DNA of 32,000 nt, taken from NCBI GenBank assembly GCA_943369355.1, contig CALRMX020000004.1, forward strand, positions 347,654 through 379,653, given 5' to 3'. Positions 11,403-18,735 of the stretch are shown here, piece after piece. A model generated the notes under the pieces. The model was not told where the DNA came from. It did no database searches and worked only from the letters and a program-made list of their open reading frames with translations. The DNA comes from Chitinophaga pinensis. Its GTDB lineage: Bacteria > Bacteroidota > Bacteroidia > UBA7662. Numbering within the stretch: position 1 is the first letter of the stretch; every line of letters begins with the position of its first letter. The translations under genes and the position numbers were made by a program.

Positions 11403-12230
11403 ATGTTACGAAATTTAGTCTTTTCTCTTTTCATCACTTCGGCTTCGCTTCTAAGCTGCTCAAAAAGCGATAACCCTTTCCGTAATCGCGATGAATTCCG
11501 ATACCAGCCAATAGCCGTGTCTGAAGTACCCCAGCAAGTCCTTAGCCATGCAGTAGCTACTTTCCCCACCGCAACGTTGTTGAGCGTAGGTAAAAACATC
11601 CATCTGGGCTTTGAGCTAAATCTCAACAATAAGTGGGATATGTATTATAGTGCACAAGGTGAGTTTGTTTTTAAGAACAACGACGACGATTCTGATCAGG
11701 CCATTCCTATTTCCAACCTTCCGCAAACAATCGTCGACTACATCAATGCGAATTTCCCTGGCCGAACAATCGTTTGGGCAGAAATCGACGACGACGAATA
11801 TGAGGTATATCTCAGCGATGGTACCGAGGTGAATTTTGACCGCCGCGGTCGTTTTCTAGAAATTGACCGCGACCGCGATGCCATAAATCCAGCTAATTTG
11901 CCTCAGATCATCCTCAGCTACATCAGCACCAATTTTCCGAATAGCACCATCATCAAGGCTGAGTTAGACGATAACTTTTATGAGGTAGAGCTAAACAACG
12001 GCATAGAACTTTATTTTGATGCACAAGGCAATTTCTTAGGATTGCAGGTTGATGACCGTACCGTTGACGTCGCTGAATTGCCCACAAACATCACCATGTA
12101 CGTGGGCCAAAACTACCCGAACCTGAGCATCTTTTCGGCCGAAATCGACAATAATAGGTACGAGTTGGAATTGTCGAACGGCATTGAGTTGTATTTCGAC
12201 CTGAAAGGAAATTTCCTTTACGCAGATTAA
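11403..12230 (+). CDS. PepSY-like (putative beta-lactamase-inhibitor-like) repeat lipoprotein
   Basis: It has the lipoprotein signal MLRNLVFSLFITSASLLSC. It then has four tandem modules of the form LP..I..YI..NFP...I..AE.D...YEV.L.NG.E..FD..G.F, which is characteristic of the PepSY-like domain family. Confidence 0.8.
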   Translation: MLRNLVFSLFITSASLLSCSKSDNPFRNRDEFRYQPIAVSEVPQQVLSHAVATFPTATLLSVGKNIHLGFELNLNNKWDMYYSAQGEFVFKNNDDDSDQAIPISNLPQTIVDYINANFPGRTIVWAEIDDDEYEVYLSDGTEVNFDRRGRFLEIDRDRDAINPANLPQIILSYISTNFPNSTIIKAELDDNFYEVELNNGIELYFDAQGNFLGLQVDDRTVDVAELPTNITMYVGQNYPNLSIFSAEIDNNRYELELSNGIELYFDLKGNFLYAD

Positions 12231-12296
12231 ACGTGTTACCGTACCCCACCAGCTTGAATGTAACCAAATTTTGATCTTTAAACTTTGAACCATAAT

Positions 12297-12938
12297 ATGC
12301 AACGTATCTTTTTTCTTTTATTCACTATCGCCACTTTGTCGGCGCAGGCACAATCAGAAACCCAAACTCTGCTCGGCAAGGGCAAATTAAACAGTTGGGG
12401 GGTCATGATTAGTCCCTCCTTACAAGCAGCGAGCATTTACGGCGAAACAACACTATTCACTCAAATGAAGGCCGGAGTGGTGCTCAACGACAATTGGACC
12501 ATCGGCGGTTTTGGTGGTGTGACCCCGTTAGAACTTTATCCTGTTGGCTTGCAGTCGCAATTTGCCATTCCCACTGACTTTCGGCTCTACACCAGCGGCG
12601 GATTTATTGAGTACCACTTGCAACCGACCAAACTGCTGCATTTTGCTTTCCCTTTGTCCGTGGGCGGCATCCTGAACGACATGGACGACCGCGATTGGGG
12701 AGGCGGATTTGACCTCGATGACGATGGTGAAGACTTCCGCATTTTTGTTGAGCCAGGGGTCAATCTCGAGCTCAATCTGCATAAATATGCCCGTCTATAC
12801 GCCGGGATGAGCTATCGCTTTCATGGGGGCAGTATTTACTCCGAAGGTCTTGCCGTACCATTTACAGGCGACTATCTTCTGATTAATGCTGGATTGAAAT
12901 TCGGCGTATTTAACTTCAAAGACATTAAAAAGAAATAG
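12297..12938 (+). CDS. hypothetical secreted / outer-membrane-like protein
   Basis: The ATG at 12297 gives MQRIFFLLFTIATLSAQAQ, a signal peptide. The body is Gly/aromatic-rich with a beta-strand pattern. A strong terminator follows. Confidence 0.6.
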   Translation: MQRIFFLLFTIATLSAQAQSETQTLLGKGKLNSWGVMISPSLQAASIYGETTLFTQMKAGVVLNDNWTIGGFGGVTPLELYPVGLQSQFAIPTDFRLYTSGGFIEYHLQPTKLLHFAFPLSVGGILNDMDDRDWGGGFDLDDDGEDFRIFVEPGVNLELNLHKYARLYAGMSYRFHGGSIYSEGLAVPFTGDYLLINAGLKFGVFNFKDIKKK

Positions 12939-13063
12939 TACAAAGAAGAGGTTGTTTACACGAATAAAAACCTGGGTGAGCGAGCCATTATTTTTGACAT
13001 GACCCCAGTTCACTTTGAACTAAAATTTCATTGACTGGCACCTTATAAAACCCATTTGGAGAC

Positions 13064-13102
13064 CCTACAACTAAACCTCGCACCGCTATGCCGCGGTGCG
13101 GG
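13064..13102. repeat. 39-bp hairpin-containing direct repeat, copy 1
   Basis: cctacaactaaacctcgcaccgctatgccgcggtgcggg is identical to 13180-13218. Confidence 0.9.
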
Positions 13103-13110
13103 TTTTTTAT
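13075..13110 (+). terminator. Rho-independent terminator for the 12297..12938 gene
   Basis: The 8-bp GC stem is cgcaccgc (13080-13087) paired with gcggtgcg (13093-13100), with a 5-nt loop. It is followed by ggTTTTTTaTTT (13101-13112). Confidence 0.75.
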
Positions 13111-13179
13111 TTGCTTCCACTCGCTTGCGGCAACAGGCCGCAGACTCGGGATTAGCTTCGCTGATCCCAATGAGGGGAT

Positions 13180-13218
13180 CCTACAACTAAACCTCGCACC
13201 GCTATGCCGCGGTGCGGG
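13180..13218. repeat. 39-bp hairpin-containing direct repeat, copy 2 (abuts and overlaps the tRNA 3' end)
   Basis: It is identical to 13064-13102. Its last 8 nt (13211-13218) supply the tRNA acceptor 3' strand. Confidence 0.9.
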
Positions 13219-13294
13219 AGGGATTCGAACCCCCGGTACCTTGCGGTACACTTGATTTCGAATCAAGCACATTCGACCACTCTGACACCTCTCC
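13210..13294 (-). tRNA. tRNA-Ser (anticodon CGA), class II with long variable arm; acceptor and D stems imperfect, so possibly impaired
   Basis: The reverse strand reads GGAGAGG TG TCA GAGTGGTCGAA TGT G CTTGA TTCGAAA TCAAG TGTACCGCAAGGTACC GGGGG TTCGAAT CCCTC CCGCACC G. The anticodon stem, the variable arm (GTACC/GGTAC) and the T-loop TTCGAAT are good. The acceptor 3' strand CCGCACC pairs with GGAGAGG at only 5 of 7 positions. There is no encoded CCA. Confidence 0.7.
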
Positions 13295-13348
13295 AGGATC
13301 GGGGTGCAAATATATCAAGGAAGATTGGAATTCAATAAATGACGCTTA
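13277..13348. repeat. 72-bp direct repeat, copy A (tRNA-Ser 5' 18 nt, its promoter, and the 3' end of the GIY-YIG ORF)
   Basis: ccactctgacacctctccaggatcggggtgcaaatatatcaaggaagattggaattcaataaatgacgctta. It differs from copy B at a single position (c/t at 13300 vs 13678). Confidence 0.9.
13307..13335 (-). promoter_or_regulatory. Bacteroidota-type promoter (-33 TTG / -7 TATATTTG) for tRNA-Ser
   Basis: The reverse strand reads TTG-N18-TATATTTG-N12-GGAGAGG (tRNA +1). TATATTTG matches the TAnnTTTG -7 consensus exactly. Confidence 0.6.
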
Positions 13349-13572
13349 ATCCAAGCCCTGCCCCAACCAGACTTTAAATAAGTCTCCCTTTTACGAGCTA
13401 AAGTTCTATTTGGGAATTCTTCGTAGTGTAAAAGCGTCCATGGCCCTTTACCTTTCGTCCAACGATGCTTGCCTTTTTCTTGGTTATGTTCTTTAAAGCG
13501 CCGGTTTAAATCGGATGTTTCACCGATGTAAAGCTGCTTTTCAACATTCACGAGTATGTAAACAAAATGCAT
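13315..13572 (-). CDS. GIY-YIG nuclease superfamily protein (small UPF0213/YhbQ-like type)
   Basis: From the internal ATG at 13572 the sequence is MHFVYILVNVEKQLYIGETSDLNRRFKEHN...TKGKGPWTLLHYEEFPNRTLARKRETYLKS. This shows the GIY(VYIL)...YIG...R...H...E motif order. The longer track ORF (to 13638) adds an Arg/Pro-rich non-homologous extension. Confidence 0.8.
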   Translation of the reverse strand: MHFVYILVNVEKQLYIGETSDLNRRFKEHNQEKGKHRWTKGKGPWTLLHYEEFPNRTLARKRETYLKSGWGRAWIKRHLLNSNLP

Positions 13573-13654
13573 ATACAATTCTTGAATACATTCGCCACGT
13601 GACGCAGCTGGCTGCGTACGTGGTCGCGTTTGCCGCAAAACGGCAGCACGCGAA

Positions 13655-13726
13655 CCACTCTGACACCTCTCCAGGATTGGGGTGCAAATATATCAAGGAA
13701 GATTGGAATTCAATAAATGACGCTTA
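13655..13726. repeat. 72-bp direct repeat, copy B (orphan tRNA-Ser 5' fragment plus a second promoter copy, upstream of GIY-YIG)
   Basis: It is the same 72 bp located 378 bp from copy A. The tRNA-like sequence GGAGAGGTGTCAGAGTGG(T)TCG stops after about 22 nt and unrelated sequence follows. Confidence 0.9.
13685..13713 (-). promoter_or_regulatory. duplicate copy of the tRNA promoter (-33 TTG / -7 TATATTTG), positioned to drive the GIY-YIG gene
   Basis: It is identical to 13307-13335 within repeat copy B. It lies about 113 nt upstream of the GIY-YIG ATG on the same strand. Confidence 0.5.
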
Positions 13727-13897
13727 TTCACGAACTATACCTTTTGGCACTAAATCTAAAATCCCATTAAATTACTTTAATAATTCAGGAAAAAACGCAT
13801 CCAACAAGTTGTCAACCTAAAAATTTACTTGAAAGTTATGTAATATTGAGGCGCCGTGTTATCCACATGCGGCGTGTATAACCTCAACCGCTAAACT

Positions 13898-15673
13898 GTG
13901 ACCCACCGAATATTGTATCGGCTGCTGCTAATTATGCTCTTAGCAGGGTTAGATGCAAGTGCCCAAATAGATTTCGATGGCATGTTGGCTGCTCCAGCCG
14001 ACAGTCCACCTCGCGACCGCATGCTGGAACAGCGTATCGCCAACAGAATTGCAGAATATTACAGCCGAGATTTGTTTTTGGTACATGCCTGGGCCGATCC
14101 CGAAGAAGCCCGAGAGCTCAATGAGCGGAATATGGTTTTGCCCGGCATGCCGCTGCAACTCACCGACGACAACCTCCCCATCGAACCCGATGCGGCCAGA
14201 GGACCTCGCACGCTGCTCCTCTACCTCGATACCAGCTTTACCCCAAGTGACGTACGCTTTGTAGAGGTTTTGTTGCGGGGCATCGACAGTTGGGACCAAA
14301 GCCGTGGCGATAAAGTAGAACTTATCCCCATCGTTTTCCCGCGTAAAAAAGACTGGACCGACTGGCTCAAAGAATTGCCCAAAAGCGTAGCTACACCTCA
14401 GCCCGCACCACAACAGCCCAATTACCCGGTTTATTTACCATCCCCCGAAAAAGAAGATCCAGCCCCAGCGCCAATACCGGCCGAAACCATACCCATTTGG
14501 CAATGGGCTGTACTTATTGGTGGTTTAATTGTCCTCATAGGCATTTTTGTGTTGCTTGGCATGTGGATTCAAAAACGATCAACTCAAGAGCTCATTCGTT
14601 TGGCAACCCAGCCGCAACAACGCCCTGAGGTGTTTAGTCTGCATCCTGAACCTAAAACCGACACTGTAAGTACAGCTGAGCCGGTGGTAGTAAACACTTC
14701 GGGATGGGAACCCCATGCGGCACGCGACTTTGTGATTAGTCAAACCATTGGCGAGCCTGCACGTACGGCTAAAATATTAGAAGGCTGGTCGCGACAAGGC
14801 GAAGAAGGCCTCAAACGTGCCGCTGCATCGTTGGCAGCCAGTAACGACCAATTGCTGTTGCTCATGCGGGGCAAAATGGATGCAACCGCCGAAACCGCCA
14901 TTTCTCAAGAGCTTCAACCGCTACGCACGCAGCAAAAAGAACAGTTTGCTGATGCCCTCATTGCATTGGCCAACGCATTGTCGTACCAAGGTCGCGACTT
15001 GGAGCCGGTGAACCATTTTGGATTTTTATCGCAGCTCGACGATCAGTCGCTCATGCATTTATTCAAAGAGGAGGCACCACGTTTGGTAGCGCTTCTCATT
15101 GCACAGTTGCCCACCGACCAGGCCAAACGTTTACTCCGCCAATTCGATGCACCTACACGTTCGCAGGTATTGGTGAATTTGGGCAGTATCAGTCAACTGC
15201 CGTTGAGTCTGTACCAAGAAATAGGTCAGCATTTCGCTCGCAAGGCGATGGAGGTTAAGCGTTTGCAAGGTCTTCCGTTTGATGGCCAACAGGTGCTTGT
15301 ACAATTGCTCGAAAATTTCGACGAAGACGAGCAGAACAACATCATCGAACACATGGCCATTAGCGACCCACAGCAGGCCGAAACCACCAACAAACGCCTC
15401 GTTCGTTTCAGCAGATTGCGCGACTACCCAGCCAATGTATTGCAAAAGGCTTGGCTCGAAGTGGATACAGAATTGATGGTACAAGCATTGGCCGGACTCG
15501 ACAAACAAATTGCTCGTCATGTATTGAGCACCCGCGCCAAACGCGAACGCGACCTCATATTATCAGAGCTGGAAAACGAAGCAGACATATCGCCCGCACT
15601 CACCAGCAAGGCAAGGAAACACATGCTCACGCTCCTGAAAAACTACTTAAAAGAACAACAATGGTCCGCCTGA
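13898..15673 (+). CDS. membrane-anchored FliG-like protein: signal peptide, periplasmic domain, Pro-rich linker, one TM, cytoplasmic FliG N/M/C-like domains
   Basis: The GTG start gives MTHRILYRLLLIMLLAGLDASAQ. The TM segment IWQWAVLIGGLIVLIGIFVLLGMWI is followed by QKRS. The C-terminal roughly 315 aa align by eye with FliG. EEAPRLVALLIAQLPTDQAKRLLRQF resembles the EHPQTIALILSYL... M-domain. DGQQVLVQLLENFDEDEQNNIIEHMAISDPQQAE...LVRFSRL...VLQKAWLEVDTELMVQALAGLDKQIARHVLSTRAKRERDLILSELE resembles the GG..AAEILN.LD...ILE.I.E.DP.LAE.I...MF.FEDL...IQ..LREVD...LA.ALKGA.E.L.EKI..NMS.RAAE.L.EDLE C-domain. Confidence 0.8.
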   Translation: MTHRILYRLLLIMLLAGLDASAQIDFDGMLAAPADSPPRDRMLEQRIANRIAEYYSRDLFLVHAWADPEEARELNERNMVLPGMPLQLTDDNLPIEPDAARGPRTLLLYLDTSFTPSDVRFVEVLLRGIDSWDQSRGDKVELIPIVFPRKKDWTDWLKELPKSVATPQPAPQQPNYPVYLPSPEKEDPAPAPIPAETIPIWQWAVLIGGLIVLIGIFVLLGMWIQKRSTQELIRLATQPQQRPEVFSLHPEPKTDTVSTAEPVVVNTSGWEPHAARDFVISQTIGEPARTAKILEGWSRQGEEGLKRAAASLAASNDQLLLLMRGKMDATAETAISQELQPLRTQQKEQFADALIALANALSYQGRDLEPVNHFGFLSQLDDQSLMHLFKEEAPRLVALLIAQLPTDQAKRLLRQFDAPTRSQVLVNLGSISQLPLSLYQEIGQHFARKAMEVKRLQGLPFDGQQVLVQLLENFDEDEQNNIIEHMAISDPQQAETTNKRLVRFSRLRDYPANVLQKAWLEVDTELMVQALAGLDKQIARHVLSTRAKRERDLILSELENEADISPALTSKARKHMLTLLKNYLKEQQWSA

Positions 15674-16716
15674 TTTTCGCTCTAAGCCTTTGTTTGTTGT
15701 CGTGGGAGGTACTGGCTCAAGATACTCCACGTCCTTCCGATGCCCAGGTATTGCGCATACGTTCTGTTGAGCGCATCATCAGTCAGCTACGTGAAAGCCT
15801 CCCCACCTATTCCGAAGATTGTCAGCGTATCGCCTTGATGATGCCCGATTTTAAGGAGAAGAACGTAAGCGCTGAAGAGGCCATGCTCATTCGTAATCAG
15901 CTTGCCCAGCAAGTTCAAAAAACGGCTTTTACGGTGGTAGACGTTCCCGAATTCCACGAATATCGACTTACACGGGTTTTTAGTTCCGATAGCGGCTTGC
16001 TGTATCAGCGGAATTCCCCCACACGCTTACTGCGAACCAACTCAGAAGCAACCGAACTGCTGGTAAAAAAGCACAAACTCGACGGCATCATTTACACGCA
16101 AATCACCTATGATTCACTCATTGGGCATACCGTTAGCATGCAATTGGTGCAGCAACGTTCGCGCGAGATAATTTGGAACCGCACCTTCCACGCCAATATA
16201 GGCATGGTCAGAGCACGAGAAAGCCAACATCTCGTTGCCTTGGGAATGGGCATGAATAGCGTGCGCTTCGTGAATGGTCTAGGAGGATACCGCGTAGCAC
16301 TTCCCAGTGTACATATCCGATGGATGTGGCGCCAACCCGTCAATGAGGCCCGTACGGTGAACTTGTTTACACTCACCCAGTTCAGCATGTACCAAGCAAA
16401 CTTTAAAGCCAACGACAGCTTGAGCTTTAATTTTTGGCGCCCTGTTCCTGAACTTGGGCTCGGATATTCACTTTCCTTTTTGAATAAAAAGAATAGTAGT
16501 GATTATTGGTTCGAGGGATATCAATCGTTTACACTACATTTTTTCAACCGTATGCGAACTAGCATCAACCAGGGTTTGTCGTTCAATTTTACGCGAAATC
16601 TGGTAGTGATGGGCGAAGTAAGCTTCATAACGGGCGCGCCTGAGTTGCACAACTATAACAATGTGGTCACTTTAAATCAGTTTCAGTATGCAGTACGGCT
16701 CAACTACCGTTTTTAA
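15661..16716 (+). CDS. outer-membrane protein: signal peptide, periplasmic alpha/beta domain, C-terminal beta-barrel ending in an aromatic residue
   Basis: The internal ATG at 15661 of track ORF 15451..16716 gives MVRLIFALSLCLLSWEVLAQ. It overlaps the FliG-like stop by 13 nt. The C-terminal half has alternating beta-strand patterns and ends ...QYAVRLNYRF, an OMP beta-signal-like terminal Phe. Confidence 0.75.
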   Translation: MVRLIFALSLCLLSWEVLAQDTPRPSDAQVLRIRSVERIISQLRESLPTYSEDCQRIALMMPDFKEKNVSAEEAMLIRNQLAQQVQKTAFTVVDVPEFHEYRLTRVFSSDSGLLYQRNSPTRLLRTNSEATELLVKKHKLDGIIYTQITYDSLIGHTVSMQLVQQRSREIIWNRTFHANIGMVRARESQHLVALGMGMNSVRFVNGLGGYRVALPSVHIRWMWRQPVNEARTVNLFTLTQFSMYQANFKANDSLSFNFWRPVPELGLGYSLSFLNKKNSSDYWFEGYQSFTLHFFNRMRTSINQGLSFNFTRNLVVMGEVSFITGAPELHNYNNVVTLNQFQYAVRLNYRF

Positions 16717-16720
16717 GTTG

Positions 16721-17242
16721 ATGCTGCTGCTGCTACTAGCAGCCGCATGTGCCAAAAAGTCTACGCCCGAGGCCGAAGTCGCTCCCGTTCGTCGTACTGT
16801 GGTACAGAAAAAAGGACCTGAACCTTTACGGATAAAATACTCGAACCAAACCACCCAAATGGATCTTGCCTTGGAAATGGAAGATGAGGTGATTGTGGAA
16901 ATGCGCGGCATTCGGCTAGATTCAACACAACTCGTTGCTGACAGCACCGTTCTCGCAAATCAGCAGCAGGAACAACAAGAACGTCAGCTTTTGAGTGTGC
17001 AACGCGCGCTCAAAAATTACCGCATGGCGCAGGAGGCCTTACTCCGCAAACAATACGACAAAGCCATGCTATATATCGATGCTTGTTTGCTTGAAGGCGA
17101 AACCGCTGAAGCTTTGGCTTTTAAGGGGTCGGTTTTTTACCTGCAAGGCAATAAAGTGGAGGCCAAAAAATTGTGGCAGAAGGCTAGGCAACTCGACCCT
17201 GATATGCCCGATGATGTGTATTACGAAACCCGAAAAAACTGA
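16721..17242 (+). CDS. TPR-containing lipoprotein
   Basis: The ATG at 16721, 4 nt after the upstream TAA, gives MLLLLLAAACAKKS with a lipobox LAAAC. The C-terminal part is TPR-like: YDKAMLYIDACLLEGETAEALAFKGSVFYLQGNKVEAKKLWQKARQLDPD. Confidence 0.7.
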   Translation: MLLLLLAAACAKKSTPEAEVAPVRRTVVQKKGPEPLRIKYSNQTTQMDLALEMEDEVIVEMRGIRLDSTQLVADSTVLANQQQEQQERQLLSVQRALKNYRMAQEALLRKQYDKAMLYIDACLLEGETAEALAFKGSVFYLQGNKVEAKKLWQKARQLDPDMPDDVYYETRKN

Positions 17243-18072
17243 TGCGCTTCTCCATTTATACAACCGTTGCTGCACTTCTCTCCTTTGTATTGGTGATTCT
17301 AGGTGCACTCGATACGGGTGAGGTAATCGACATTGATGGATATTTACCGGCCACATTGAGTGGAATGACCTATTTAAACATTCCAAGCTTATTCATTGTA
17401 TTGGGTGGCGTACTCACGGGTACTTTTGTGATGTTTCCATTCCATTCGGTATTGAACACGCTTGGCGCCGTGCGGTATTTATTTAGTCACAGCAATACCA
17501 AACGTTCGGTGATGTACGATGCTACCAACAGTTTGCTTGAAGTTACCGCTGCCTACAAAAAAGATAAATCCAGCTTCCGCGATAAGTTGCGTACTACTTT
17601 CAACGACCCCTACGTGCTTACCTTGGAAGAATTGCTCGAGACCAACTACCCGGCAGAAGAAATGCGGAAATTGGGAGAATCGCGCATAGAAAATAGTTTT
17701 TCAACGAATACCACGCAGGCCGACATATTATCGTCGATGGCTACTTCGGCACCAGCATTTGGCATGCTGGGAACCATCTTAGGCCTCATCGCCATGCTTC
17801 GCAATCTCGAAGATCCCTCAGCTGTAGGTCCTTCGTTGGCTGTAGCCCTAATTACTACTTTGTATGGCGTTATCTTCGCCAACCTTGTATTTCTTCCTCT
17901 TTCAAAAAAAATAAGGGCACATGCCATGCACAATTTCGAATGGCAAACCATTGTCCTCGAAGCCTTTATCATGTTGCGCGAAAATCGGTCGGGTATGTAT
18001 ATGAAAGACCGTCTTTTTGCCCTCATCGATCATCAGCAAATAGCAGAACCCGAAGAAAAAGCGGCAAAATAG
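17242..18072 (+). CDS. motA: MotA/PomA-type stator protein (MotA/TolQ/ExbB proton-channel family, 4 TM with long cytoplasmic loop)
   Basis: A TGATG stop/start overlap lies at 17240-17244. It has four TM segments with a loop of about 100 aa between TM2 and TM3. It carries the signatures SAPAFGMLGTILGLIAML (conserved Pro, TM3) and LAVALITTLYGVIFANLVFLPLSKKI (conserved Pro, TM4). Confidence 0.9.
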   Translation: MRFSIYTTVAALLSFVLVILGALDTGEVIDIDGYLPATLSGMTYLNIPSLFIVLGGVLTGTFVMFPFHSVLNTLGAVRYLFSHSNTKRSVMYDATNSLLEVTAAYKKDKSSFRDKLRTTFNDPYVLTLEELLETNYPAEEMRKLGESRIENSFSTNTTQADILSSMATSAPAFGMLGTILGLIAMLRNLEDPSAVGPSLAVALITTLYGVIFANLVFLPLSKKIRAHAMHNFEWQTIVLEAFIMLRENRSGMYMKDRLFALIDHQQIAEPEEKAAK

Positions 18073-18081
18073 CAGAGGATC

Positions 18082-18735
18082 ATGCGGATTTTGAAGCCCC
18101 AGAACGAAGATGAACAGAACTGGTTGATTACCTACAGCGACCTGATTACCCTCGTTCTTTGCTTTTTTGTGATGCTGTACACCACTGCTGAAGTAAAAGT
18201 GAGTGTTTGGGACGAGCTAAAGGCTGGGTTTAATGCCGAAATGAAAAAGCAGCAGCGTCCGAAAGATTACCTCAAGCAAGCGGTAAGAGAGCTGGACAGC
18301 TTACGCAGAACCTTACCCGATTCAGATGCCTTTGTGCTTCAGTTAAACAAAGAGGGTTTGGAGATTAACTTCGTCAGTAAACTCCTTTTCCCAAGTGCCG
18401 AAGCACAACTGTTACCCGAAGGTGAACAGGTACTGCGTCAGGTGGCCGGGCTCCTTGGACGTCTCAACGACCGTCCATACGAGTACGAAGTTCAGGGCCA
18501 TACCGACGATCTGCCCATCAATACGCCCATATTTCCATCGAATTGGGAGTTAAGCTCAGCACGAGCAACTACGGTGGTTCGCGCTTTGATTGCCTCAGGT
18601 TTAGATCCAGAAAAATGCCGTGCTTCGGGTTTTGCCGAAACCCGCCCTGAATTGCCCAATCGCGACCCTAAAGGCGTGGCAATACCCGAAAATCAAGCCG
18701 CCAACCGCAGAGTGGTCGTTTTGGTGCGTCGCTAA
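18082..18735 (+). CDS. motB: MotB/PomB-type stator protein (single TM with conserved Asp, plus OmpA-like peptidoglycan-binding domain)
   Basis: NWLITYSDLITLVLCFFVML is the MotB TM segment with the invariant Asp. The C-terminus GHTDDLPINTPIFPSNWELSSARATTVVRAL...GFAETRP...NRRVVVLV is OmpA/MotB-like. It lies 9 nt after motA with an upstream aGAGGA. Confidence 0.9.
   Translation: MRILKPQNEDEQNWLITYSDLITLVLCFFVMLYTTAEVKVSVWDELKAGFNAEMKKQQRPKDYLKQAVRELDSLRRTLPDSDAFVLQLNKEGLEINFVSKLLFPSAEAQLLPEGEQVLRQVAGLLGRLNDRPYEYEVQGHTDDLPINTPIFPSNWELSSARATTVVRALIASGLDPEKCRASGFAETRPELPNRDPKGVAIPENQAANRRVVVLVRR

Follow-up and report, generated by a model that had tools for sequence, protein, structure and literature searches.

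What kind of genetic unit sets a small nuclease gene between two copies of the promoter and 5′ end of a tRNA gene? The question is raised by a tRNA-Ser(CGA) locus in the window (the whole stretch of Chitinophaga pinensis DNA analysed here, 32,000 nt of contig CALRMX020000004.1), in which an earlier reading, made from the letters alone, had recognized the order promoter and tRNA stub, GIY-YIG gene, promoter and tRNA, and had taken it for the footprint of a minimal mobile cassette. That order holds (Table 1), as does the spacing of 378 nt given for two 72-bp repeats with one mismatch. A repeat search shows the 72 nt to be the core of a 76-nt direct repeat with two mismatches (13349 T/A, 13300 G/A), 378 nt from start to start, and the coordinates first given were one base off. 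Each copy contains, as claimed, a promoter (TTG, an 18-nt spacer and TATATTTG), and the end of the ORF (its last 11 codons and stop) does lie inside copy A, the TGA stop codon (13317-13315) abutting the TATATTTG box (13314-13307). The description of copy B requires revision: rather than stopping after about 22 nt of tRNA and running into a 79-nt leader, it consists of tRNA nt 1-19, a 59-nt double hairpin and then tRNA nt 20-26, and this double hairpin within the D-loop, the hallmark of the locus, had been missed. Apart from the ORF the insert amounts to only about 80 nt, in a unit of 378 nt overall.

Table 1. Features of the tRNA-Ser(CGA) locus (positions within the window).
Feature	Position	Strand	Remarks
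Repeat copy B	13654..13729	-	orphan last ~33 nt of GIY-YIG CDS (13727-13693), promoter, tRNA-Ser nt 1-19 (13672-13654)
Copy B promoter, Bacteroidota-type	TTG 13713-13711; TATATTTG 13692-13685	-	
Double hairpin, 59 nt, GC-rich	13595-13653	-	between tRNA nt 19 and 20 (D-loop) of copy B
Hairpin 1, TCGCGTGCTGCCGTTTTGCGGCAAACGCGA	13624..13653	-	30 nt, after tRNA nt 19; DNA fold z = -4.4
Hairpin 2, CCACGTACGCAGCCAGCTGCGTCACGTGG	13595..13623	-	29 nt, near-perfect palindrome; folding
CGAATGT = tRNA-Ser nt 20-26	13588..13594	-	broken tRNA copy resumes past the hairpins; kept in L043
Leader, short, A/T-rich	13573..13587	-	precedes the start codon
GIY-YIG nuclease gene, 85 aa	13315..13572	-	last 11 codons and stop within copy A
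Repeat copy A	13276..13351	-	GIY-YIG 3′ end, tRNA promoter, tRNA nt 1-19
Copy A promoter	TTG 13335-13333; TATATTTG 13314-13307	-	
tRNA-Ser(CGA)	13209/13210-13294	-	ARAGORN and Infernal; full length, native 3′ acceptor strand lost from 13218 downwards
Deletion junction	13218..13219	.	104 nt missing here, present in L117 (conspecific contig)
Two tandem ~116-nt locus-specific repeat units	13051..13218	+	terminator-like GC hairpin ends each (13077-13102; 13195-13216)

One account holds that replication slippage or unequal exchange duplicated a local stretch in the ordinary way, the GIY-YIG gene being a bystander and the nuclease and the hairpins uninvolved. Microhomology-mediated rearrangement does happen at the locus, to judge from the 104 nt deleted at the tRNA 3′ end, and the genome also has a 176-nt duplication at tRNA-Pro(GGG) where there is no GIY-YIG gene. 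Against this, only five isolated pairs of direct repeats, near-exact and 40 nt or longer, lie at 150-1000 nt spacing in the 3.08-Mb genome outside large coding repeat arrays; two are coding, and each of the remaining three flanks a small GIY-YIG gene. With all three non-coding pairs genome-wide sharing this association, the 76-nt repeat is not due to chance, and duplication beside a bystander comes close to being refuted. Two more local tandem repeats, at C3 and C6, also lie at GIY-YIG loci. The same breakpoints and hairpins moreover recur across species, families and phyla, and the repeats are homogenised within lineages. We consider an ordinary duplication very improbable. The ~112-116-nt units beside GIY-YIG genes were also considered as a dispersed REP family and rejected, being locus-specific; those at 13051..13218 have no copies elsewhere in the genome.

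Three other readings (an assembly artefact, a group I intron with its homing endonuclease, and an integrase-island remnant at the tRNA gene) are, even taken together, exceedingly improbable. The first is refuted because contigs from four other metagenome assemblies carry the same structure: the conspecific L117, which covers the whole region, L044 and L045, which end at the second repeat, and L043, from a second species. In L044 and L045 the contig stops 54 nt within a second hairpin, which might suggest a tandem array; an assembler loop is likelier, as the stop coincides with an exact overlap of 127 nt and L117 contains just one unit. The intron is likewise refuted, as Rfam returned no group I intron core at E ≤ 1, its matches being confined to the tRNA, an overlapping sX4 below threshold and a weak plastid-UTR match. 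The sole NCBIfam match, to a group I intron endonuclease, is sub-threshold and uninformative. For an island it can be said that tRNA genes are common integration sites and that the region upstream of the cassette, with its FliG-like operon, is not syntenic in relatives. As a synteny breakpoint this operon is uninformative, being missing or only 27% identical in relatives. Against an island, and in keeping with the earlier statement that no integrase is present, there is no integrase-sized ORF in 11500-15500 and no integrase domain in the three flanking genes checked. The duplicated piece is also the promoter and 5′ end rather than the 3′ end, the opposite of classical tRNA elements, as the sequence-only reading had pointed out, and a unit of just 378 nt speaks against island and intron alike.

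The nuclease consists of a GIY-YIG domain alone. The 85-aa ORF matches Pfam PF01541 over residues 1-68 (E = 3.5e-18), and in alignments Y5, Y15, R25, H29 and E63 are conserved, the catalytic residues being present. A separate DNA-binding region of Seg type is absent, and the lack of a DNA-binding domain of the kind that confers specificity on homing endonucleases is an observation that weighs against a selfish nature. The best solved-structure matches are to UPF0213 (1ZG2 and 1YWL), then SLX1 (1ZG2, 1YWL and 7WME at E = 4e-8, 2e-5 and 0.014). The C-terminus that copy A encodes has homologous counterparts in distant relatives. Because the distal 33 nt of the repeat thus encode the native C-terminus of the nuclease, the repeat is not a simple target-site duplication, and the view of it as plain duplicated target sequence must be given up. 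Simple insertion with target duplication fails to explain nuclease coding sequence in the repeat, which is again a point against selfishness.

These traits resemble those of the Ssn family (cd10448; SsnA/NTS, SRM), whose members cut only single-stranded DNA, at specific sites beside the hairpin-forming repeats that accompany them (Chenal et al., Nat Commun 2025; PMC11893778). Ssn proteins are single-domain GIY-YIG proteins of ~90 aa without a DNA-binding domain, and their Y6, Y17 and E64, the residues mutated in that study, correspond to Y5, Y15 and E63 here, the catalytic Tyr/Tyr/Glu in nearly the same positions (PMC11893778). They too have an adjacent hairpin-forming inverted repeat with a conserved stem (20-50 nt, compared with 30 and 29 nt here), and their distinct protein lineages have distinct hairpins; the authors remark that the repeat-gene-repeat arrangement resembles a mobile element (PMC11893778). 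Several differences set the two apart. Ssn hairpins are dispersed in hundreds of copies (PMC11893778), whereas those here are unique to the locus, sit inside broken tRNA copies and accompany a gene flanked by long direct repeats of tRNA and promoter; tRNA is never mentioned in the Ssn paper (PMC11893778). The SRM motif HGTCWYN(0-2)YYVSBRHN(0-5)WNVSBRGN(0-2)RNCYNB is absent from the hairpin and repeat regions of all four small GIY-YIG loci, and we therefore rejected the hairpins as canonical SRMs; its five matches genome-wide include one ~460 nt downstream of the Ala-locus gene. The absence of this published motif also bears against a selfish interpretation.

A second parallel is SegB of phages T4 and T6, encoded by a GIY-YIG gene among tRNA genes, which cuts within tRNA genes, recombination then leading to tandem amplification of itself and tRNA (PMC13096335). 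Such amplification matches the tandem arrays and flanking duplications seen here. SegB is, however, a phage protein that acts on dsDNA, with neither a hairpin nor a broken tRNA copy (PMC13096335), and the cassette described here is chromosomal and long-resident. Presence and absence at the same site among relatives, a Seg-type trait, was also observed: six relatives (G001, G002, G003, G014, G015, G025) have cassette-free tRNA-Ser(CGA) loci, the empty sites that the earlier reading had proposed to look for. UPF0213, YhbQ and Slx1-like proteins have the same minimal fold and provide the best sequence matches among solved structures; unlike them, the tRNA-linked copies are patchily distributed and occupy tRNA loci that are rearranged and carry hairpins. 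IS200/IS605 and REP/RAYT systems likewise combine a small gene with hairpin DNA thought to be recognized as single-stranded, and domesticated and selfish forms coexist among them; unlike in those systems, an HUH or tyrosine transposase is absent here. A GIY-YIG hydrolase cannot rejoin DNA, and any movement of the cassette must therefore rely on host recombination.

How old is the arrangement? The layout in L043 is identical, with 81% nucleotide identity over the aligned region, distributed unevenly among its parts (93% in the repeat, 93% in the hairpins, and 76% nt or 88% aa in the nuclease). The hairpins differ in their loops only, with no changes among the stem bases, versus 24% divergence in the adjoining coding sequence. 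In the nuclease, pN is 0.079 and pS 0.757, the latter saturated, and dN/dS is well below 1. Judging from this substitution pattern, both the protein and the hairpin stems are under strong purifying selection. Such selection is expected equally of a host-beneficial gene and is to that extent a point against a selfish element. Substitutions specific to L043 occur in both of its repeat copies, which indicates that the two copies are homogenised within each lineage. The locus is thus no fresh footprint, as had been supposed; with synonymous divergence saturated, the arrangement is old and has been kept across two species.

The cassette has relatives in the same genome, namely further GIY-YIG genes linked to tRNAs, with part of the tRNA duplicated. 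Thus empty sites, other tRNA-linked copies and the catalytic residues, the absence of which the sequence-only reading had said would count against it, were all found. The four paralogs in this genome are 33-46% identical to one another and near-identical copies are absent; such divergence implies no recent transposition here, and one of the four, the Ala copy of 66 aa, is decayed or truncated. Related cassettes lie at tRNA-Met, Ala, Asp, Leu, His and Arg genes, and small GIY-YIG genes are multi-copy in the class, with up to about ten matches per genome. At all inspected tRNA-linked loci in the class (Ser, Met, Ala, Asp, Leu; more than 10 genomes) one tRNA copy is broken and carries a GC hairpin, and the full combination of a ~80-90-aa GIY-YIG gene, one or more hairpins in a broken tRNA and an uninterrupted tRNA is common to this locus, the inspected class loci and L114. 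The last of these, from Opitutaceae, has promoter and stub, hairpin, GIY-YIG gene, and promoter and tRNA, as here, and in L104 and L106 a double hairpin of comparable form, with an xCGT...ACGx base, immediately precedes the GIY-YIG gene. Tandem arrays of 2-3 cassettes exist. The tRNA-Met junction, with compensatory stem changes, was found in 15 of 301 class genomes (5%); the Met locus is common to G000, G001 and G002, differing in copy number alone, and this cassette looks vertically inherited within the genus. G001 also has a cassette remnant from which the nuclease gene is missing.

The tRNA-linked proteins form a single clade in which each sub-lineage keeps to one tRNA type across families. 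The nearest homologs are in other phyla (37-56% identity) beside different tRNAs, with a tRNA within ~270 nt in seven of the 13. A word-indexed protein search returned only two close relatives, and an exhaustive search of representative proteins returned 5260 homologs, none above 56% identity. The Ser type was found in no GTDB representative except possibly this genome and was otherwise seen in only three metagenome samples. An exact-junction scan of 185,579 species genomes gave no match, and among metagenome contigs the conspecific contig alone matched. No empty site was found within the species, all conspecific contigs carrying the cassette, which is an observation unfavourable to a selfish element. 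The divergence of the paralogs, the tRNA-type fidelity of the sub-lineages and the apparently vertical descent of the Met cassette are unfavourable to it in the same way.

This record raises the alternative that nuclease and hairpins form a domesticated module, inherited vertically and serving the host at tRNA loci, the duplications being side effects and self-spread playing no part. Such a module could restrict or steer recombination of incoming ssDNA, as proposed for Neisseria SsnA, or tune tRNA gene dosage by local amplification, and Ssn has been shown to modulate transformation (PMC11893778). The low dN/dS over saturated synonymous divergence, the preserved hairpin stems, the fidelity of each sub-lineage to a single tRNA type in different families, the Met locus of G000, G001 and G002 with its change in copy number alone, and the absence of near-identical copies within the genome all fit this explanation. 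Against it are the very patchy distribution (5% of class genomes for the Met junction, three other metagenome samples for the Ser type), the decayed copies (the Ala copy and the G001 remnant), the position of the closest homologs in other phyla and beside different tRNAs, and the regular presence of a broken tRNA copy, which one would not expect of a beneficial gene. We consider domestication possible but rather unlikely.

On balance it seems probable, by no means assured, that the locus houses a resident, tRNA-lodged selfish mini-cassette, in which a GC double hairpin and an 85-aa GIY-YIG nuclease occupy the D-loop of a duplicated piece of tRNA-Ser(CGA), its promoter and 5′ part, with another promoter-tRNA unit behind it. 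Its nuclease activity and mobility we infer from these comparisons. The nuclease gene probably borrows the duplicated tRNA promoter, which would transcribe it, and the transcript could run on into the tRNA. The nuclease may recognize its own hairpin in single-stranded DNA and nick nearby, as Ssn does (PMC11893778). Recombination with a sister copy or a homologous one would then mend breaks in or beside the tRNA gene, and such repair may create, homogenise and amplify the flanking duplications in the manner of phage SegB (PMC13096335). Over evolutionary time, tRNA genes that lack the cassette might acquire a copy of it, the conserved tRNA sequence providing the homology arms. We propose that a duplicated tRNA piece always accompanies the cassette because only arrangements that keep an uninterrupted tRNA copy would survive.

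More tentatively, these elements might constitute a distinct mobile class lacking both integrase and transposase, in which an Ssn-like single-strand nuclease, the sole protein, nicks tRNA genes via its own hairpin, host recombination copies the cassette into new tRNA genes along homology arms of universally conserved tRNA sequence, and the intact tRNA is rebuilt. As a side effect, tRNA loci in many bacterial phyla would be duplicated and amplified locally and would decay. In this full form we regard the proposal as unlikely. We found no published description of the tRNA-lodged form in the literature, and the family, a widespread one, is apparently undescribed. If the mechanism is true, it would join two recent findings, the hairpin-guided Ssn nucleases and SegB-type amplification of tRNA loci, and a selfish element resident in the chromosome would be remodelling tRNA genes in many phyla. 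The many small genes annotated 'GIY-YIG nuclease family protein' and the odd partial tRNA copies in Bacteroidota annotations would then be accounted for, and natural nuclease-hairpin pairs of differing specificity would be to hand. The present locus is a good test case, offering two diverged species, an identifiable probable promoter, an undamaged conspecific reference contig and a visible cost.

That possible cost of hosting such a cassette is illustrated by the tRNA-Ser(CGA) itself, which a nearby deletion has truncated. The tRNA that follows copy A had been described as complete; its 3′ acceptor strand reads CCGCACC, not CCTCTCC, giving mismatches A3.A70 and A5.G68 and a score of 43.5 bits versus 50.6-53.8 in relatives. 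Comparison with L117 traces this damage to the 104-nt deletion, which took away the acceptor strand at the tRNA 3′ end together with the tRNA's terminator and a portion of a local repeat unit, and is bounded by the imperfect repeats GCGGTGC(T/G)GG and GCGGAGAGGG. In the genome that carries this damaged tRNA, UCG makes up 22% of serine codons.

The cassette at tRNA-Ser(CGA) consists of a GC double hairpin and a small GIY-YIG gene lodged in a duplicated 5′ piece of the tRNA gene. Its paired direct repeats lie 378 nt apart, as the sequence-only reading held, although each covers 76 nt with two mismatches rather than 72 nt with one. Both contain promoter-like elements, TTG and TATATTTG separated by an 18-nt spacer, ahead of tRNA nt 1–19. 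A TA..TTTG-type box is the Bacteroidota −7 consensus, and similar boxes lie upstream of other tRNA genes in G000, the genome under study; a sigma-70 consensus scan left the sites in copies A and B unflagged, as expected for a Bacteroidota-type promoter. The stub in the upstream repeat, copy B, does not merely break off as first thought: its nt 19 is followed directly by two GC hairpins (30 and 29 nt), and since tRNA nt 20–26 resume after them, they interrupt the duplicated piece precisely at the D-loop. Their folding is far above that of shuffled sequence (RNA z=−3.3, DNA z=−4.4).

Features of the tRNA-Ser(CGA) cassette in window coordinates
Feature	Position	Strand	Length	Remark
Repeat copy B	13729-13654	minus	76 nt	
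Insert (two hairpins)	13653-13595	minus	59 nt	
CGAATGT	13594-13588	minus		tRNA nt 20-26
Leader		minus	15 nt	between CGAATGT and ORF
GIY-YIG ORF	13572-13315	minus	85 codons	Pfam E=3.5e-18
Repeat copy A	13351-13276	minus		covers final 11 codons of ORF
Body of tRNA-Ser(CGA)	13294-13209	minus		

The reading frame is as originally described, and all the catalytic residues on which that reading depended are present (Tyr5, Tyr15, Arg25, His29, Glu63). No terminator was found between it and the tRNA. In the repeat, the 33 distal nt code for IKRHLLNSNLP, homologous to C-termini in distant relatives (IKKLLKKSLLL, IKKMLKNFLS); the repeat is thus more than a target-site duplication, since part of it is the nuclease's own coding sequence. 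With no integrase-sized ORF in 11500-15500 and no integrase domain in the three flanking genes checked, the locus is not an integrase island, in line with the sequence-only reading, and a scan of the locus for RNA families rules out a group I intron.

Contigs of four other assemblies carry the structure, which is thus real and not an assembly artefact. In one of a different species (L043; 81% nucleotide identity across the aligned region) the layout is identical, with a period of 377 nt and an intact tRNA. The two species are 93% identical in the repeat, 93% in the hairpins (all differences in loops, none at stem bases), 82% in the leader, and 76% in the nuclease gene (88% for amino acids). 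The low pN of this gene (0.079) beside a saturated pS (0.757), together with the unchanged stems, points to strong purifying selection on the protein and on hairpin stem sequence; such selection on the protein speaks against active mobility, and for the main rival to the mechanism proposed below, a host-serving, domesticated module. Substitutions that distinguish the species occur in both L043 repeat copies, so the copies are homogenised within each lineage; the two are identical across the available 59 nt. Judged by this sequence comparison, the cassette arrangement is old. Two conspecific metagenome contigs (L044, L045) end 54 nt into a second hairpin copy, with an exact 127-nt terminal overlap, probably because the assembler looped at the 378-nt repeat, the alternative being a two-unit array in those populations.

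Besides uvrC, G000 has four small GIY-YIG genes, and tRNA-linked ones beyond the Ser locus, which the sequence-only reading proposed looking for, were found at tRNA-Met and tRNA-Ala(GGC). The Met locus (C3:252886-253470; L042/L004) comprises tRNA-Met(CAU), a terminator, an 83-aa GIY-YIG gene and a broken tRNA-Met copy with hairpin TCCGTCAGCCGACGGA in place of nt 38–47; an 86–94-nt direct repeat with 444-nt spacing, made up of the tRNA 3′ part and the terminator, flanks the gene, and a 108-nt tandem repeat (2.9 copies) lies downstream (C3:253484-253791). At the Ala locus (C3:313645-314070; L005) a broken tRNA-Ala copy (nt 1–27, hairpin TCCCGA...TCGGGA, partial T-arm) precedes an intact tRNA-Ala(GGC), behind which comes a GIY-YIG ORF cut to 66 aa, without the catalytic Glu. 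This arrangement recurs in four other genomes (G012, G033, G069, G091), and in G091 (L059) the 86-nt pseudo-tRNA-plus-hairpin unit is present in at least seven tandem copies. The fourth gene (83 aa; C6:25230-25915; L037) has three 112-nt units upstream and one downstream, each ending in a CTACCAA-like tRNA 3′ end and a terminator hairpin, and found nowhere else in G000. These in-genome paralogs are just 33–46% identical, which again argues against active mobility.

We scanned the genome for isolated near-exact direct-repeat pairs (at least 40 nt, spacing 150–1000 nt, outside large coding arrays) and found only five, two of them coding repeats; the other three all flank GIY-YIG genes. Two more local tandem repeats, on C3 and C6, are also at GIY-YIG loci. 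A 176-nt direct duplication at C6:229423-229805 (tRNA-Pro(GGG) 3′ end, terminator and downstream sequence) has no GIY-YIG gene, and its terminator loop is inverted between copies (aagcgaaagcga vs tcgctttcgctt). Unrelated to the cassette are non-coding-looking tandem repeats with a 48–52-nt period and 3–14 copies (C5:266130-266597, C5:287399-287597, C5:309753-310487, C9:108776-108887).

Every tRNA-linked locus inspected in the class (Ser, Met, Ala, Asp, Leu; >10 genomes) has a broken tRNA copy in which a GC hairpin splits or takes over a stem-loop, e.g. TCCGTC-AGCC-GACGGA for nt 38–47 of Met, or TCCCGA...TCGGGA for the Ala anticodon arm. Of 301 class genomes, 15 (12 of 167 genera) have the tRNA-Met junction, with no matches in the reversed control; its inner stem pairs show compensatory variation (CC/GG, TT/AA, GC/GC, TC/GA). 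Cassettes often occur in tandem arrays of two or three: G002 has three behind tRNA-Met (C4:180190-181240; L029/L038; period 369 nt), the middle one frameshifted. The Met locus of G001, of the same genus as G000 (L122, C14: about 77550-77900), has lost the nuclease gene and kept the broken copy with hairpin TCCGTCAGCAGACGGA, only about 55 nt from the tRNA terminator; part of the tRNA sequence there is given as N. The protein tree groups all tRNA-linked proteins in a single clade (91/86), inside which Met and Ala form sub-clusters; longer YhbQ-like paralogs without tRNA linkage make up the other. Each nuclease lineage is faithful to one tRNA type and the Met cassette looks vertically inherited within the genus, both of which favour a domesticated module over active mobility. 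The closest species-representative homologs of the Ser protein (37–56% identity) are from Gammaproteobacteria, candidate-phyla bacteria, Omnitrophota and Verrucomicrobiota; in seven of 13, a tRNA gene (Ser-GGA, Arg, Leu, Gly, His) lies no more than about 270 nt away. An Opitutaceae locus (L114) has the Ser layout at a tRNA-His gene, its repeat being 82 nt long, and in two others (L104, L106) the order is tRNA, double hairpin, nuclease gene.

Cassette-free tRNA-Ser(CGA) loci, expected under the sequence-only reading, exist in six relatives (G001, G002, G003, G014, G015, G025), with no GIY-YIG gene within 1.5 kb. No within-species empty site was found. Recombination between the repeats would excise the cassette scarlessly, so that loss and never having acquired it are indistinguishable. 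Homologs of the Ser nuclease above 46% identity are absent from 34 genomes of the order, and above 56% from 1.84 billion representatives. In G015 synteny is kept on the tRNA 3′ side and lost upstream. The FliG-like/MotAB operon adjoining the cassette (window 13898-18735) is missing from three genomes of the same genus (G001, G002, G003), and its G015 counterpart is only 27% identical and differently located; the operon thus belongs to a variable region whose border is the tRNA locus.

All the evidence is comparative, and beyond the anatomy we infer a mechanism from two published precedents. The Ssn proteins, GIY-YIG enzymes of 94 aa with a single domain, bind a hairpin repeat as single-stranded DNA only and cut at a distance of a few bases; the hairpin often flanks their genes, a layout the authors liken to a mobile element (PMC11893778). 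SegB, a phage GIY-YIG enzyme within a tRNA cluster, cuts inside tRNA genes and, via recombination, amplifies itself and a tRNA in tandem (PMC13096335). The cassette would work like an Ssn-hairpin pair and like SegB. We suggest that the duplicated tRNA promoter may transcribe the nuclease, which would nick at its own hairpin. Repair of the breaks by recombination could create, homogenise and amplify the flanking repeats and occasionally carry a copy of the cassette to a tRNA gene lacking one, persistence being limited to arrangements that keep a whole tRNA. The published SRM motif, a defining feature of Ssn, is missing at the cassette, a further point against active mobility. Homing endonucleases have a separate DNA-binding region, whereas the cassette protein has none. 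The Ssn paper does not mention tRNA, and literature searches gave no account of bacterial tRNA gene duplications that house a small GIY-YIG gene and hairpins. The locus adds a Bacteroidota case with the promoter itself duplicated, a two-species comparison of selection on protein, hairpin stems and repeats, a genome-wide association of small GIY-YIG genes with local repeats, and a dated collateral deletion in tRNA-Ser(CGA).

That downstream tRNA, initially taken to be complete, is damaged: its 3′ acceptor strand reads CCGCACC vs CCTCTCC in six relatives, and it scores 43.5 bits vs 50.6–53.8 in relatives. A conspecific metagenome contig spanning the whole region (L117, 95% identity) has the tRNA undamaged and followed by a terminator of its own, and 104 nt of the contig (L117:1686-1789) are missing in G000 (junction at window 13218/13219). 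The deletion, bounded by imperfect 10-nt repeats (GCGGTGC(T/G)GG and GCGGAGAGGG), took the 3′ acceptor strand and the terminator. Most family members searched lack a close match to this tRNA-Ser(CGA). In G000, 22% of serine codons are UCG, presumably decoded by tRNA-Ser(UGA), the gene for which was found in the genome.
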